From assembly GCA_963740355.1 (NCBI GenBank), contig CAVUDW010000002.1, positions 1,952,001-2,016,000 on the forward strand: a stretch of DNA of 64,000 bases, given 5' to 3'. The number at the start of each line of letters is the position of its first letter. Within the stretch, counting starts at the first letter, position 1. The translations under genes were made by a program, and so were the position numbers. The notes under the pieces were generated by a model. It did not search any database. It was not told the DNA's origin and worked only from the letters and a program-made list of their open reading frames with translations. Below, piece after piece: positions 8,547 to 63,607 of the stretch. The DNA comes from an uncultured Gemmatimonadaceae bacterium. Its GTDB lineage: Bacteria > Gemmatimonadota > Gemmatimonadetes > Gemmatimonadales > Gemmatimonadaceae.

Positions 8547-9101
8547 ATGTCGCAGCCAAAGCGGACGTACACCACGGACGACCTCGACGGGTTTCCAGAC
8601 GACGGCAACCGCTACGAGATCATCGACGGCGAGCTCTTCGTGACGCCCTCGCCACGGCTCTGGCACCAGGCAGCGGTACTCGAACTGGTCGAGAGGATTC
8701 GCCCTTACGCCAAGGCGCTCGGATTGCGGACGTTCGCGGCTCCGACCGATGTCCGCGTGTCCCAGTTCACTCAGGTGGAGCCTGACCTTTTCGTCTATCC
8801 GCGCGTGGACGACGTGGACGCCACGACGCGGTGGGTCACGATGAACCGGCTACTGTTGGCCGTCGAGGTACTGTCTCGATCGACGGCCCGCGTTGATCGT
8901 GGTCGGAAACGCGAGCTGTACCTCGAACAAGGGGTCGAGGAGTACTGGATCGTCGACGTTGATTCCGGCACGGTTGAAGTCTGGTCGCGACACAACGCGG
9001 AAGCACGCATCGAGTCCGAGCGATTGCACTGGCAGCCCATCCCTGAACGCGACGCATTGGTGCTGGATCTGATCGAGTACTTTCGAGACGTGCGCTCGTA
9101 A
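8547..9101 (+). CDS. Uma2 family (PD-(D/E)XK) endonuclease
   Basis: RYEIIDGELFVTPSP..H, EPDL, LAVEVLSRST...K..LY...GVEEYWIVD; TATCCT 6 nt before this ATG suggests a leaderless start. Confidence 0.93.
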   Translation: MSQPKRTYTTDDLDGFPDDGNRYEIIDGELFVTPSPRLWHQAAVLELVERIRPYAKALGLRTFAAPTDVRVSQFTQVEPDLFVYPRVDDVDATTRWVTMNRLLLAVEVLSRSTARVDRGRKRELYLEQGVEEYWIVDVDSGTVEVWSRHNAEARIESERLHWQPIPERDALVLDLIEYFRDVRS

Positions 9102-9163
9102 CTACGTCGCAAGCGCGCGACCGGAGACTAGGTCCCCAGCCGCGCGCCAGCCCATCCGACGAG

Positions 9164-10390
9164 TCAATCCTTGTACGGGTCGAACTCGTTGTCACCCGCC
9201 ATCACGACGATCAGCGGGCGCAGCACGTGCAACACCTCCACCGTCCCCCGCTGCGCGGCCAGGACCTCGGGCAGGCGACGGTACACATGCGGGCTCTCGT
9301 CCACACCGCCACCGCGAAGGATCACACCCTTCTCCCGCACCCAGTCGCGCATCATGTTCGGCGACACCGCGCCTCGGCTCAACTGGCGGCCGGAGCGGAA
9401 GTGACGCTTTCCTGCCGCCGCCGTGCGTGACATCACACGACCGGCGCCATGCACGGTGGAATAGAGCGCCGATTCCTGCAGCGTGACCAACTCGGCTGAC
9501 GCATGATCCGCCGCCAGCCCCTGCACGATGACCGCATCGTCACCCATCGACCCACCAACGAAACCCTTCTGCCCGGGGAAGGCGGGTGTCGCACCCTTCC
9601 GGATGACGACGACCTCCTCGCCGAAGTGCGCTTCCTTCCAGGCGAAGTTGTGGTGGTTGTGGACCAGTTCCAGCTCATCACCACCAAGCAGCGCGACCAC
9701 CTTCCGCGCCACCCACTCGCGGCCGGCATAGGCGTAGGCGCCCGCAAGGTTCATCAGGTGCCAGTAGTCGTGACCGATCGGATCATCGAGGTCGAGCAAC
9801 ACCTCCGTCTCCGGCACCCGCTCACCCCATGCCTTGCCCTGGCCGAGCGCGAGGAAGTTGGAGGCAACCGTATGGCCGAACCCGCGTGATCCGAAGTGCA
9901 CGCCAACCCAGATCGCACCCCGTTCATCCACGAACACGTCCACATAGTGGTTCCCGCTTCCGACCGTCCCGAGTTGCGCCCGCGCCTTGTCGCGCAACGC
10001 CGCCCGGTGCGCGGCCGGCACTGCGTCCCAGGTCGGGTCGTCGAACAGCGCGTGGTCGATTGGTGCGTCATCCGCACGATTCTTCCGACCCATGCCGAAG
10101 CTCACCGTGGCAGAGATTTCATCGGCGAATGTAGTGAGCGCCGAGTGGATCGCTTCGGAATCGCTTCCGAATGAGGCCAGCGTGAGGTTGGTGCGGATCG
10201 CGGCGTTACCGCACGCGATGTCGAAGCCGACGCCCACAACTGAGATCCGATTGTCGTACGCCGCCACACCACCGATCGGCATCACGTAGCCCATGTGACC
10301 GTCGGCCATCAGGGCAGCGTGCTTCGCCTGCGCGCGGATGTGTTCGAACTGAATGAGGGTCTTCTCCTCATGATTTCCAAAGATCGTCAT
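9164..10390 (-). CDS. rtcB: RtcB family RNA 3'-phosphate/5'-OH ligase
   Basis: DGHMGY..PIGG, GFDIACG, GSGNHY, HFGSRG, HNHHN, RKGATPA, HGAGR and DESP motifs; AGGTG RBS. Confidence 0.96.
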   Translation of the reverse strand: MTIFGNHEEKTLIQFEHIRAQAKHAALMADGHMGYVMPIGGVAAYDNRISVVGVGFDIACGNAAIRTNLTLASFGSDSEAIHSALTTFADEISATVSFGMGRKNRADDAPIDHALFDDPTWDAVPAAHRAALRDKARAQLGTVGSGNHYVDVFVDERGAIWVGVHFGSRGFGHTVASNFLALGQGKAWGERVPETEVLLDLDDPIGHDYWHLMNLAGAYAYAGREWVARKVVALLGGDELELVHNHHNFAWKEAHFGEEVVVIRKGATPAFPGQKGFVGGSMGDDAVIVQGLAADHASAELVTLQESALYSTVHGAGRVMSRTAAAGKRHFRSGRQLSRGAVSPNMMRDWVREKGVILRGGGVDESPHVYRRLPEVLAAQRGTVEVLHVLRPLIVVMAGDNEFDPYKD

Positions 10391-10552
10391 CGTACACCTG
10401 CCATCCCTGTGGTAGTGCGCAGCGCTGTCGAGTTGTCGTGATGCGCAATGAAACTGCATGGTGAATCCCGCCGCGCGCCGTGAACCGCGCGCGACGGGTG
10501 CAAGGCACCACTGCCGATTCGTATGGGACCGAATGCGGCAGGACACCATTGC

Positions 10553-10870
10553 TCAATCAGGCTCCCAGGGGCGCTGATTGGCGTTGTCTTCGTCGCGACG
10601 GGCCTTCGCGAATTCGCGGTCGGCAGCGCGTGTTGCAGCCGTCGACTCCACGATCACGTTGACCAATCGGGCTCGCACCCTGATGAGCGAGCCGGTACAG
10701 TCCCGGAACTCGAGCCATTTCGGCTCGACCAGGCGGTTGAAGGTCTTCCGGAGGCAACAAGCGACCTCGCGGGTGACGAACACTCGTCCGAACTCTCCGG
10801 AGACGACGAAGAACTCGTCGTACGGCGGGAATTCGGCGCGCTCGTTCAGCAACTGCAGAATTCTGTTCAT
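10553..10870 (-). CDS. Hypothetical 105-aa protein between the tRNA-like RNA and rtcB
   Basis: MNRILQLLNERAEFPPYDEFFVVSGEFG...RPWEPD; protein-like composition, co-oriented with rtcB. Confidence 0.7.
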   Translation of the reverse strand: MNRILQLLNERAEFPPYDEFFVVSGEFGRVFVTREVACCLRKTFNRLVEPKWLEFRDCTGSLIRVRARLVNVIVESTAATRAADREFAKARRDEDNANQRPWEPD

Positions 10871-10983
10871 GATCGGAGTGTCAGCCAGGCGCTGGCCGCC
10901 GAGGTGGCGAGCAGCTAGCGGCTGTGGAAGTGAATGTTCAAGCCCGCACGTCAAGCGACGTGCGAAATGGAAAGACGAACAAG

Positions 10984-11109
10984 ACGGGCTGGCGGGATTT
11001 GCACCCGCATCTTCGGCATCGTGCTCCGCCGGCTCCTGCCTTCTGCAGGCACTGGGAATTCCGGCGGCGATATCGCGCTCTGAGACTGCCATTGAGCTAC
11101 ACATCCCGT
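10984..11109 (-). ncRNA. tRNA-like RNA with an elongated anticodon arm (Y RNA/YrlA-like or pseudo-tRNA)
   Basis: Minus strand reads ACGGGATGTG-TA-GCTC-AATGGCAGTCTCA-GAGC (D arm), long paired arm, AAGAT, GCGGG-TGCAAAT-CCCGC (T arm), CAGCCCGT (acceptor 3' strand). Confidence 0.75.
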
Positions 11110-11467
11110 TGGCGCGCGGCCAAAACCCATACGCGCCGAAAGTGGTGATCGACAATGCCTGCAACGTGCCGGCAGCGGCGAGTATCGAACATGAGGTGAA
11201 TCCGCCCCCGGAGCGGGGTGGAGGGACACCGCGGGCGCTCCGAGGGTGAAGCGACGTGACAGATGCACAGCGGCGGCGACGTGTTGTCGAGTCGAGTCCG
11301 TGTCGGAGCACGTACGACAGAGGAAAAACACCGGCAGGGGAGTCGCGTGTCTCTCTGCGCGGGATTTCATGTCGTACGCGTCCGTCGAGGATCGCGACAG
11401 CGCGTTCATCCAACCGGATATCCCCGAGACATGAAGGGCCTGATCCGCGGACCTCTCGCGCAGATAC

Positions 11468-11505
11468 AAAACGCCCCACCTGGCACTCGGCGCAGGCGGG
11501 GCGTA
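11468..11505 (-). terminator. Intrinsic terminator
   Basis: ACGCCCCGCCTG...CAGGTGGGGCGT hairpin followed by TTTTGT on the minus strand, just after the small ORF. Confidence 0.6.
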
Positions 11506-11535
11506 GAACGCTCCTTCTTCAGTGCAGAGGGCACA

Positions 11536-11724
11536 CTACGACGTGTGCACCTCGTCCCTGAAGCCTGCGTGGATCCAACCGTTGAGCGCATTCGCGCCCG
11601 AGACGATTAGCTGGTACAACTGCGGTCGGAATTCGCGCTTGCTCATGCACGAATCCAGCACCAGCGCGCGCTGGCAGCTGCCGACGCGCGGGTCCCTCGG
11701 ATTGCGATCAATGAGTGAAGTCAT
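11536..11724 (-). CDS. Small 62-aa hypothetical protein
   Basis: ACAGGAG RBS before the ATG; terminator downstream. Confidence 0.45.
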   Translation of the reverse strand: MTSLIDRNPRDPRVGSCQRALVLDSCMSKREFRPQLYQLIVSGANALNGWIHAGFRDEVHTS

Positions 11725-11968
11725 GCGAACTCCTGTGAACCGGTGAATCGATGGTGTGGTAAATCGCGTGCGGAAACGCAAAATCGCGCCACCGACGTTC
11801 ACGCAACGAAAAGACTCCGTTGGGTTTGAGTTGGCATTGCGATGCGACGGCACCGGCAAGGATCAACTCGTGAACATCGGGACGCGACTCCCAGAGAGAG
11901 CGATCGTAAGCGGGCCAGGATTCGATGTCAAGGGGTGCGTCAAACACCGACGAACCACACCGCGTGGC

Positions 11969-13507
11969 TCAGCGTGTATCGCGCGCCGTGAATGGCTGCT
12001 TCCGGCTCCCAAGCCGATCGTACACACGTCGCGCCGCGGCGACGGTGCCCGGTGCACGTCGCACGGCCCAGATCCGATCCCGTGCGGCGCGCATCGCCTG
12101 CACGTTGTCCACGATCGGCAGTGGATACGTGACGCCGATCTGCACGCCATACATCTGCTGCAGCATCGGCGGCATGCTGTGCGGCTCGGCGAGGGCAGCG
12201 CGCGGAACCGCGGCCAACTCGGGCACCCACTCGCGGATGAACGTGCCATCGGGATCGTGATCGAGTGACTGCTTCACCGGATTGTAGATGCGGATCGCAT
12301 TGATGCCGGTGACGCCCGACTGCATCTGGCACTGGCTGTAGTGAATGCCCGGCTCGAAGTCGAGGAACTCTCTCGCCAGCAGCACACCGGTGAATCGCCA
12401 GTGCAACCACAGGTGGTAACTCGCGAACGACATCACCATCGCACGCATGCGGAACGGCAGCCATCCCGTGGCGCGCACGGAACGCATGCAGGCATCGATC
12501 AACGGATACCCGGTATGACCTTCGTACCAGACTGACAGTCGTTCCGCGTCTGCCGTCTGTTCATCGCGCAGGCCGACGTACGCATCACACATCGTCCTGA
12601 ACTCGAGCGGGGGCTGATCCTCGAGCTTCTGCATGAAGTGGCAATGCCAGCGCAGACGGGAGCGGAAGCTCGAAATGCTCGCGCGCCATCGCGCATCGAC
12701 GTCGTCACCCGAGGCAGGACCATTGGCGAGCTGCTGCAGTCTCGCGCGCGAAGCATGTTCGCAGGTGCGGATGCTGATCGCACCGGTGCTCAGCCAGGCG
12801 CTGAGGCGGCTGCACGCGTCGGGCGCTGTGACGGGGCTCGACATCTCCCGGCGATAATCGACACCACGTTCACGAAGGAAGCTGCGTAGTGTCTCTCTTG
12901 CCACCTGTTCACCACCGTGCTGGAGGCGAGGGCGCGAATGGCGGTGCGTCGCCGACAGCGCGAGTGATGCCGCGTCGTCGCGTTCGGCCAGCGCAACGCT
13001 CGAGAGTCGCCGAGGTGCTGGCAGCGGCGCCGCTGCCATGCGGGCTTCCCAGGCGGTGGCCCATCCGTCACGCGACGGGAGGCGCCTCACCACACCGGTC
13101 TGCGGCAATTCGAGCAACTCGTGGCCATGTGCGCGGCACCATTGGCGGACGGTGCGGTCACGCTGGTAGGCGAGCCATCCCGTCGTCTCCTCGTGCGCCC
13201 AGATCGAGGTGATGCGCGACGGCTCTGCAGACTGCGCGAGCTCGCCCTGGATCGCTGCCAACACCGACGTCACCTCGCCTGTTCGCCGGTGCAACACGAC
13301 ACCACGCTCGGCGAGCGACTCGGTTAGGTCGTCGAGGCATTCGAGCACCAGACCCAGATGCCTCGGATCGTGGTCTGGGGCCTCCATCAGCGACGGCTCG
13401 TGGATGTAGAGGCACAGCACGGGCCCGCGCGCGGCCGCCGCCGTCAGTGCAGCATGGTCGCGGATTCGGAGGTCGCGCTTGAACCAGACGAGATGGATGT
13501 CACGCAT
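11969..13507 (-). CDS. Cryptochrome/deoxyribodipyrimidine photolyase family protein
   Basis: VWFKRDLRIRDH, CSRLSAWL, TGYPLIDACMR...GWLPFRMRAM, FLDFEPGIH and DPDGTFIREWVPEL motifs. Confidence 0.95.
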   Translation of the reverse strand: MRDIHLVWFKRDLRIRDHAALTAAAARGPVLCLYIHEPSLMEAPDHDPRHLGLVLECLDDLTESLAERGVVLHRRTGEVTSVLAAIQGELAQSAEPSRITSIWAHEETTGWLAYQRDRTVRQWCRAHGHELLELPQTGVVRRLPSRDGWATAWEARMAAAPLPAPRRLSSVALAERDDAASLALSATHRHSRPRLQHGGEQVARETLRSFLRERGVDYRREMSSPVTAPDACSRLSAWLSTGAISIRTCEHASRARLQQLANGPASGDDVDARWRASISSFRSRLRWHCHFMQKLEDQPPLEFRTMCDAYVGLRDEQTADAERLSVWYEGHTGYPLIDACMRSVRATGWLPFRMRAMVMSFASYHLWLHWRFTGVLLAREFLDFEPGIHYSQCQMQSGVTGINAIRIYNPVKQSLDHDPDGTFIREWVPELAAVPRAALAEPHSMPPMLQQMYGVQIGVTYPLPIVDNVQAMRAARDRIWAVRRAPGTVAAARRVYDRLGSRKQPFTARDTR

Positions 13508-13737
13508 TCGGAAGCGAACGTTCCAGGCGGGCAGAATGATCCGTCGCACGTCGGGATTCCATGGCGGGAGGGCACCGCTGCGTCAGCAGCATCATGGACG
13601 CGCGTGACTGCTCACCCATTCGGGTGACGCGGGAGCGTCAGTGTGAGGCTACACTCCGACCAGACTGATGCGCGCCCAGCGATGCGCACGGACAACCCTG
13701 GCGCAGCAGGGGGTTCGTCGTATGGTGCGAGTGCTGT

Positions 13738-63533: not shown

Positions 63534-63607
<74 letters not shown>

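Follow-up and report, generated by a model that had tools for sequence, protein, structure and literature searches.

The DNA analysed here, referred to throughout as the window, is a 64,000-nucleotide (nt) stretch from the genome of an uncultured Gemmatimonadaceae bacterium (C2:1952001-2016000 in an assembly of 5 contigs and 5.45 Mb that is 94.49% complete), and all positions are given in the frame of the whole stretch. On its minus strand, read 5' to 3', lie a promoter, a structured leader, an open reading frame (ORF) of 62 codons, a terminator, several hairpins, a tRNA-shaped RNA, a gene for a 105-residue protein that we call p105, and rtcB (Table 1). An earlier reading of the bare sequence, the original prediction, had described this arrangement as an RNA-repair module without Ro60, RtcA or RtcR, and all of the minus-strand elements that it listed are present. 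Comparison with related loci indicates that the window holds a reduced Ro60/Y-RNA/RtcB operon, in which the parts that are left remain conserved and under selection, and not an independent invention, because relatives carry the leader, tRNAs or tRNA mimics, the Ro60 gene rsr, p105 and rtcB, and the window sits in a subclade without rsr.

RtcB reseals RNA breaks that leave 2',3'-cyclic-phosphate and 5'-OH ends. The rtcB of the window is intact, as had been claimed: its product matches Pfam RtcB (PF01139) at 210.8 bits against a cut-off of 27 and over profile positions 7-424 of 426, relatives align to it across residues 1-408, and the motifs FDIACGN, GSGNHY, HFGSRG, HNHHN and HGAGR, which we take to be the metal-binding and His-GMP motifs, are all present and are invariant in 25 sequences of its clade. 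The closest solved structure is the RtcB of Pyrococcus horikoshii (E 4.5e-27), and each of the four NCBIfam RtcB subfamily models scores the protein under its cut-off. It is the only RtcB in its genome and belongs to a divergent Gemmatimonadales clade. RtcB occurs in 158 of the 401 genomes of the order and falls into two clades, one scoring at ~570 bits and the window's at ~200-220 bits; TROVE, by comparison, is found in 16 of the 401. Profile searches of the window's own genome, at the completeness given above, returned zero matches each to TROVE/Ro60, the RtcA cyclase (RTC, PF01137), RtcR (PF06956) and Archease (PF01951), which agrees with the absence of Ro60, RtcA and RtcR proposed from the window alone.

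The tRNA-shaped RNA and p105

The RNA upstream of p105, which we call type B, has the outline of a tRNA and escapes the usual tools. ARAGORN calls no tRNA at 10980-11109, Rfam (tRNA and YrlA models included) has no match in 10300-12100 at E<=10, and no match to Y RNA at the gathering threshold was found in the loci of 20 relatives; a covariance model is blind to permuted relationships, so the Rfam negative does not address a permuted kinship with YrlA. We built a covariance model, R1, from the window copy and that of genome G292, which are 80% identical. It finds exactly one copy in the window's own genome, matches 15 of the 151 genomes of the family at E<=1e-8, and identifies 14 type-B copies among the loci examined (13 of them outside the own genome) at 80.8-152.1 bits, with the window copy scoring second highest. 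Standard pairs occupy 91.8% of cells in the 14-member alignment, and sliding the 3' partners by 1-3 columns lowers this share to 35-45%. Of the 41 pairs, 13 have changed on both sides, and the covariation score is reached by 0 of 500 shuffles. The alignment was fitted to the model and so favours structure; the margin is large, and compensations are also visible by eye. Type B is a real RNA family that Rfam and ARAGORN do not detect, and the tRNA-like RNA originally proposed here is one of its members.

The acceptor stem of type B has a 2-nt bulge, its D arm is GCUC/GAGC and its T arm carries the loop UGCAAGU, and these three arms are its best-conserved parts. Replacing the anticodon arm is an irregular arm of ~60 nt, made of four conserved and covarying helices (helices 3-6); its 3' side carries the conserved bulge GG-A-GCAC-GA, and 5 nt cap it. 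The hairpin motif that had been noticed just 5' of the RNA corresponds to P0, a 27-nt hairpin whose arms read GGCGCG/CGCGCC, GGUGCG/CGCACC or GACGCG/CGCGUC across the 14 copies. Each of the 14 copies is followed by rtcB on its own strand, with rsr in between in four cases and no rsr in the locus in the other ten, and genomes G000, G162 and G292 carry type B with no TROVE match anywhere.

A second kind of mimic in the relatives, type A, has canonical acceptor, D and T arms and a ~56-nt insert in place of the anticodon loop, holding an invariant GCCCG...CGGGCCG hairpin and a GGGUUAUCGA stretch; the Rfam tRNA model scores one type-A copy at 48.6 bits. Type A stands beside rsr in 6 of 8 cases and type B in 4 of 14. 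Since neither type has an anticodon loop, neither is a tRNA. An intron-containing tRNA was ruled out for both, as the residues flanking the insert form no anticodon loop, and GCCGAAG in the window was ruled out as a Ro60-binding GNCGAA motif, as these letters take in the variable loop and the 3' strand of what corresponds to the anticodon stem, and covary as a helix. The missing CCA of the mimic is uninformative, because the sole canonical tRNA of the window, a tRNA-Met (CAT) at 63534-63607 (+), likewise has no encoded 3' CCA.

The protein p105 falls in no family of Pfam, NCBIfam or PADLOC. A six-frame search matched 48 of the 401 genomes of the order at E<=0.01, and 42 of these are credible after removal of five hits with E>0.003 and one in a 513-residue frame with an internal stop. 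Among 1.84 billion representatives, a profile built on 30 p105 sequences matched 380 clusters at E<=1e-3, almost all of them ~100 residues long, and the nearest ESM Atlas clusters are exclusively hypothetical proteins of Gemmatimonadota. The G+C content of the gene by codon position (0.63/0.44/0.79) resembles that of rtcB. To judge from these matches, p105 is a Gemmatimonadota-specific protein family, and the ORF that had been singled out as an unknown protein is a real gene family. A related-locus search with the single p105 sequence as query gave no match.

In the AlphaFold model of p105 (predicted local distance difference test, pLDDT, 82.6), five strands form a small beta-barrel that has one helix inserted; a long helix follows at the C terminus, and after it an acidic tail that usually ends in PWE[DE]D. 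Fold searches gave no significant match: Foldseek had none at E<=0.001, and VIA-align reached a best Z of 4.7, with Hfq/Lsm rows at Z 2.3-3.0. A likeness to the dynein light chain LC8 was rejected, as the PDB profile rows that suggest it are weak (E 0.026-1.3) and the fold search does not support it. By hand comparison of coordinates, 27 of the 42 credible genomes have p105 next to the divergent rtcB; in 13 it stands elsewhere or the genome has no RtcB match, and in 2 it is at a contig end. The genes downstream of the stand-alone copies (PD40, DinB_2, Uma2, MCP, TonB_C) have no common theme.

The spacer between p105 and rtcB had been read as a structured leader. It does fold well (z -2.15, with an equally good fold in 3 of 200 shuffles); its length is not conserved among relatives and is merely ~30-80 nt in L003-L005.

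The leader and the genes it marks

From the promoter to the tRNA mimic, the locus is conserved more strongly than the proteins. The -35 hexamer TTGACA is kept in the aligned leaders of 18 loci, and a few bases past the -10 box begins an element of 21-26 nt, LEAD26 (GGGAGTCGCGTCCCGATGTTC), that is identical across genera and unique in the window's own genome. A second conserved block ~90 nt downstream forms an 18-position pairing with LEAD26 that encloses two covarying hairpins, and RNAalifold on 15 loci gives the whole 5' domain 28 consensus pairs, 8 of them with changes on both sides.

The ATG, frame and stop of the leader ORF are kept across loci, and in 7 close relatives it has 62 codons. 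The stop codon differs by locus (TAG, TAA or TGA) and is held in the loop of a hairpin whose arms covary, from GCACAC/GUGUGC in the window to GUACUC/GAGUAC in L080. Many leader peptides end ...G-R-T-P, with R-T-P or R-P before the stop. From the end of the ORF to the terminator arm the distance is 32-39 nt in all 16 leaders evaluated, a count that leaves out two further leaders, and 29-39 nt in 11 of 13 additional leaders. The terminator that had been predicted here is conserved across genera; an automated scan missed it because it allowed loops of 3-8 nt and this loop has 10. Substitutions in the ORF are spread evenly over codon positions (546/553/521), so the leader peptide as a whole is not under protein-like selection, and we infer translation solely from the conserved frame, start and stop. 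A conserved 62-residue protein is ruled out by this absence of bias and by tblastn, which returns the query alone. The ORF product also falls in no Pfam or NCBIfam family. What stands of the 62-residue ORF in the original prediction is therefore a leader ORF with conserved start, frame and stop, and not a conserved peptide.

Downstream of the terminator, a hairpin at 11209-11242, within what had been described as a multi-stem segment, is conserved in close relatives. Another presents in its loop the 11-mer ACGCGACTCCC, the exact reverse complement of the first 11 nt of LEAD26 (11884-11894), and recurs at 8 of 18 other LEAD26 loci examined. Across ~550 nt, the 11-mer could form a long-range helix with LEAD26 or serve as a second operator.

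Taken together, the layout looks like that of a ribosome-dependent attenuator. The same elements might instead act as DNA, with LEAD26 and the inverted 11-mer binding a putative repressor or activator of an RNA-damage or SOS-like regulon and the ORF and terminator being secondary. Such an operator would explain why LEAD26 keeps a fixed position just past the -10 box of unrelated operons, why some genomes have perfectly palindromic variants of it (GGGACGCGCGTCCC) and why a second, inverted copy lies ~550 bp downstream. It would not account for the 18-position pairing that encloses two covarying hairpins, nor for the leader ORF and terminator that accompany LEAD26 to loci without rtcB, and we consider it rather unlikely.

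With up to 2 mismatches, LEAD26 occurs in 50 of the 401 genomes of the order vs 1 for a reversed control, and several genomes have two copies. (The RtcB and LEAD26 tallies over the 401 genomes include G203, G077 and G358, which are flagged as unpublished; no locus-level claim uses these.) An extra copy in G346 lies upstream of a Hen1-Pnkp RNA-repair operon (L162, G346:C42). In G290 (L155, G290:C9) and G394 (L169, G394:C44) LEAD26 precedes a baeRF family-10 release-factor-like gene and a ferritin, with a DksA-type zinc-finger gene additionally present in G394. G156 has it before an HNH endonuclease gene and a type-B-like RNA, and again before a CdiI_3-like gene (L156, L157). Stand-alone p105 genes are preceded by LEAD26 in G379, G289 and G074. 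Two genomes without any RtcB or TROVE match, G084 and G182, have a type-B-like RNA (~54 bits) downstream of the leader. The closest tie of the tRNA mimic and p105 is thus to the leader, more than to RtcB, and RtcB and Ro60 are frequent but optional members of the same unit. The original prediction proposed p105 as a new partner of RtcB and the mimic as a substrate, decoy or sensor for anticodon nucleases, roles that they may have; neither, however, is dedicated to RtcB, given the 13 genomes in which p105 is away from RtcB, the 20 of 20 further loci of the RtcB clade that lack p105, and the mimics of G084 and G182. The shared leader suggests an attenuator-controlled RNA-damage and ribosome-rescue regulon in place of RtcR. 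This portable leader, which appears to control an RNA-damage regulon, is in our view the most interesting component of the locus family.

Outside the unit, the flanking genes encode a photolyase (11969-13549) and, on the opposite strand, a Uma2 endonuclease (Pfam).

Table 1. Features of the rtcB unit in the window, followed by type-A mimics at related loci (positions of the latter are those of each locus)
Feature	Position	Strand	Basis or remark
Sigma-70-type promoter, TTGACA-17-TACGAT	11903-11931	-	Single promoter-like site in 9000-12100
Structured 5' leader domain, holding LEAD26 (11869-11894)	11780-11896	-	RNAalifold, 15 loci
Leader ORF, 62 codons, stop TAG at 11536-11538	11536-11724	-	Start, frame and stop conserved
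Stop-codon hairpin, leader-ORF stop in loop	11531-11548	-	Arms complementary across aligned loci
Intrinsic terminator, 12-bp stem, 10-nt loop, U tract	11467-11504	-	Direct sequence reading; conserved across genera
Hairpin with 11-mer ACGCGACTCCC (11338-11348) in loop	11334-11358	-	Conserved downstream of the terminator in rtcB leaders
Hairpin CGGAGCG...CGCUCCG	11209-11242	-	Conserved in close relatives L003, L005, L052, L072-L075, L087
P0 hairpin, directly 5' of the tRNA-like RNA	11111-11137	-	14/14 type-B loci, compensatory arm changes
Type-B tRNA-shaped RNA, 130 nt	10980-11109	-	Covariance model R1, 141.9 bits
p105 gene, 105 codons	10553-10870	-	Family of 380 clusters at E<=1e-3
p105-rtcB spacer, 162 nt, GC-rich hairpins	10391-10552	-	Fold z -2.15; hairpins specific to this window
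rtcB, 408 residues, ends in DPYKD	9164-10390	-	Pfam RtcB 5.6e-62, 210.8 bits
Type-A mimic	L037:10151-10276	-	
Type-A mimic	L042:8720-8845	+	
Type-A mimic	L040:5262-5402	-	
Type-A mimic	L055:4102-4229	-	
Type-A mimic	L111:2917-3042	+	
Type-A mimic	L089:2529-2666	+	

Relatives and a proposed mechanism

We compared 80 loci of the window's RtcB clade (69-88% identity), in which contig ends make all feature counts lower bounds. At least 12 have rsr, at least 27 p105, at least 11 type B and at least 16 the leader element; at least 11 have 5-15 tRNA genes arrayed around rtcB, at least 4 have the order p105, class-I methyltransferase, rtcB, and many have rtcB alone. In several relatives p105 is preceded by a Ro60 gene, whose product has the TROVE and vWA_Ro60 domains. 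The order in G108 is leader, tRNA-Asp, tRNA-Arg, tRNA-His, type A, type B, rsr, p105 and rtcB.

Some of these loci have features of their own. At L042/L099 (G275), L055 (G171), L057 (G221), L103, L106, L111, L120 and L123, 10-17 tRNA genes lie directly upstream of the RtcB gene, which is usually followed by one or two tRNA-Arg genes and then p105, a type-A mimic and rsr. A class-I S-adenosylmethionine (SAM) methyltransferase of ~255 residues (Methyltransf_25/23/11) stands between p105 and rtcB at L044 (G096), L043 (G282), L109, L118, L124 and L142. The RtcB match is split at L037 (G280:C2) and L038 (G310:C102) into residues 1-60 and 60-408, ~1.35 kb apart on the same strand, and looks like an intein-containing RtcB, for which NCBIfam has models. 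At 72-74% identity the clade also appears at L092, L126 and L150, in metagenome-assembled genomes (MAGs) labelled Thermoleophilia, Longimicrobiales and Acidobacteriota, which could be due to gene transfer or mis-binning.

The abundance of tRNA genes raises the possibility that the mimic is processing punctuation, a degenerate tRNA kept as an RNase P or RNase Z signal that divides the leader from the p105-rtcB mRNA. In many relatives rtcB directly follows same-strand tRNA genes, 11 of the 80 loci have at least 5 of them, and the acceptor, D and T arms are what the mimic conserves best. A cleavage signal alone would need neither the long arm nor P0, both of which are conserved and covarying, and in G084 and G182 the element is present with no cassette mRNA downstream. 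We find this account quite unlikely.

In a quick RtcB tree (support from the Shimodaira-Hasegawa-like approximate likelihood ratio test, SH-aLRT; midpoint or long-outgroup root), the window falls in a clade of 8 loci, starred in the tree, none of which has rsr; the rsr-bearing loci lie outside. Within this clade, the RNA and p105 occur together in the window and L072, the RNA alone in L073, L074, L075 and G162, and p105 alone in L076/G190 and L079. The most economical reading would be an initial loss of rsr, with the RNA or p105 disappearing later in some lineages. An operon that had merely lost rsr was the case that the original prediction had named against itself, and it is in part what we see, with rsr in relatives and the window in an rsr-less subclade. 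The expected linkage to the RtcB clade also stands in part: the mimic and p105 are conserved and syntenic, and p105 is missing from 20 of 20 further loci of the same clade (hidden Markov model search, E<=1).

If the tRNA-like element and p105 became functionless once rsr was gone, only rtcB would matter and the locus would be a decaying remnant. Mosaic loss of the RNA and p105 in the window's own clade, and the 20 other clade loci without p105, would then be expected, as would the state of the window's type-B copy, in which two pairs are non-standard (G-G and A-C) and the T loop is atypical, with G instead of U at position 55. Decay is harder to square with the ten type-B copies in rsr-less loci, which retain the 41 pairs with compensatory changes, with the rank of the window copy as second best of all, or with p105, which keeps an open frame, gene-like codon G+C and 49-64% identity to its homologues in the rsr-less relatives L003-L005. 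We regard a functionless remnant as very unlikely.

The reading that we favour, with a probability of roughly 55%, is a reduced cassette without Ro60, in which one sigma-70-type promoter would drive an attenuator leader, the tRNA mimic, p105 and RtcB. The transcript would start with a leader of ~430 nt, comprising the 5' element in a three-helix domain, the 62-codon ORF and the terminator ~32 nt further on, where most transcripts would end. Disturbed translation of the leader ORF, for example by damaged tRNAs or ribosomes, would allow read-through. Three products could follow: a non-decoding tRNA-shaped RNA consisting of P0 and the cloverleaf, presumably excised; the small beta-barrel protein p105, as an accessory member of the regulon; and the divergent RtcB, whose intact motifs would let it reseal 2',3'-cyclic-phosphate/5'-OH breaks. 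The mimic, which in relatives lies just upstream of rsr, would be the local counterpart of a Y RNA. Here, without Ro60, it would most likely serve that stress response as a tRNA-like cofactor, a decoy or a scaffold, and the type-B RNA, p105 and RtcB may bind one another.

Several observations weigh against this mechanism. The accessory parts are dispensable, as the single-part loci of the 8-locus clade and the 20 loci without p105 attest, and the window's own mimic has the defects described above. Type-B-like RNAs occur without RtcB or TROVE in G084 and G182, and in G156 the RNA follows the HNH gene with rtcB on another contig. In the leader, the ORF shows no codon-position bias, the palindromic variants of LEAD26 would fit an operator, and no convincing antiterminator was found; a candidate pairing between the second block and the 5' arm of the terminator is compensated in 2 of the 4 loci in which the arm varies. 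Among public sequencing runs, no RNA run contained this stretch, and a fraction of 0.17 of the sampled words was the most that any DNA run contained.

A bolder form of the attenuator reading, which we offer only tentatively, would make LEAD26, the leader ORF and the terminator a new class of attenuator that senses failing translation or damaged tRNA and commands a regulon (mimics, Ro60, p105, RtcB, Hen1-Pnkp and baeRF) replacing RtcR; the Y-RNA-like mimic would be independent of Ro60 and p105 would be a new RNA-repair cofactor. The locus bears on how bacteria that lack RtcR sense RNA damage and switch on RtcB, and on the role of tRNA-like RNAs beside RNA ligases. Its family is a compact and naturally varied test bed, in which the mimic persists with or without Ro60 and with or without RtcB, and which also offers a new small protein family and a portable leader marking several RNA-repair and ribosome-rescue operons. 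Should the leader prove to sense at the level of RNA, RNA repair would be coupled directly to how well translation proceeds, and a regulon would be defined in a phylum with little known gene regulation.

Comparison with known systems

The closest parallel is the rsr-yrlBA-rtcBA operon of Salmonella Typhimurium, described in two reports as sigma-54/RtcR-dependent and encoding YrlA (Chen et al. 2014, PMC4201824; Hughes et al. 2020, PMC7790460). In both systems RtcB is co-encoded with an RNA that mimics tRNA, and in the window's relatives with Ro60/Rsr too, and both presumably respond to RNA damage. The window's genome differs in having no match to Rsr, RtcA or RtcR, in its sigma-70-like promoter, leader ORF and terminator, and in the extra p105. 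The string "Gemmatimon" is absent from the searchable supplementary files of Chen et al. 2014 (PMC4201824).

In the published accounts of YrlA (Chen et al. 2014, PMC4201824; Wang et al. 2018, bioRxiv 10.1101/312249), this tRNA mimic has a closed loop for its acceptor stem, and its ends lie in the Ro60-binding stem. Its Ro60-binding motif is GNCGAA. Type B shares with it the tRNA-like D and T arms, a long stem in the place of the anticodon loop and, in relatives, rsr as a neighbour. The difference is one of topology: YrlA is permuted, whereas type B has the topology of a tRNA, ends at the acceptor and keeps its long arm closed. In types A and B alike, the long arm carries GG...(Y)CGA on its 3' strand, a stretch that would lie where the logic of permutation puts the Ro60-binding motif.

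The b7a-tRNA is a predicted tRNA-like RNA beside RtcB and Band-7 proteins and sometimes Rsr; in the words of Wang et al. (2018, bioRxiv 10.1101/312249), such RNAs "strongly resemble an authentic tRNA". Compared by that description and not by sequence, it resembles type B as a tRNA look-alike of tRNA topology beside RtcB. Type B differs in being missed by ARAGORN and the Rfam tRNA model and in having no Band-7 gene nearby; the four Band_7 matches of the window's own genome, at C2:99039, at C2:234030 and on C3, are none of them near the window. Type A, judged by the same description, may be closer to b7a-tRNA than type B is.

Leader-peptide attenuators are familiar from the trp and his operons and from TnaC-type arrest peptides. 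The window's leader shares their plan of a promoter, a short ORF and an intrinsic terminator whose spacing from the stop codon is fixed, and differs in having neither a clear antiterminator nor runs of one regulatory codon. It also differs in the large structured domain that precedes the ORF, and in what it would control, which is RNA repair and not amino-acid metabolism.

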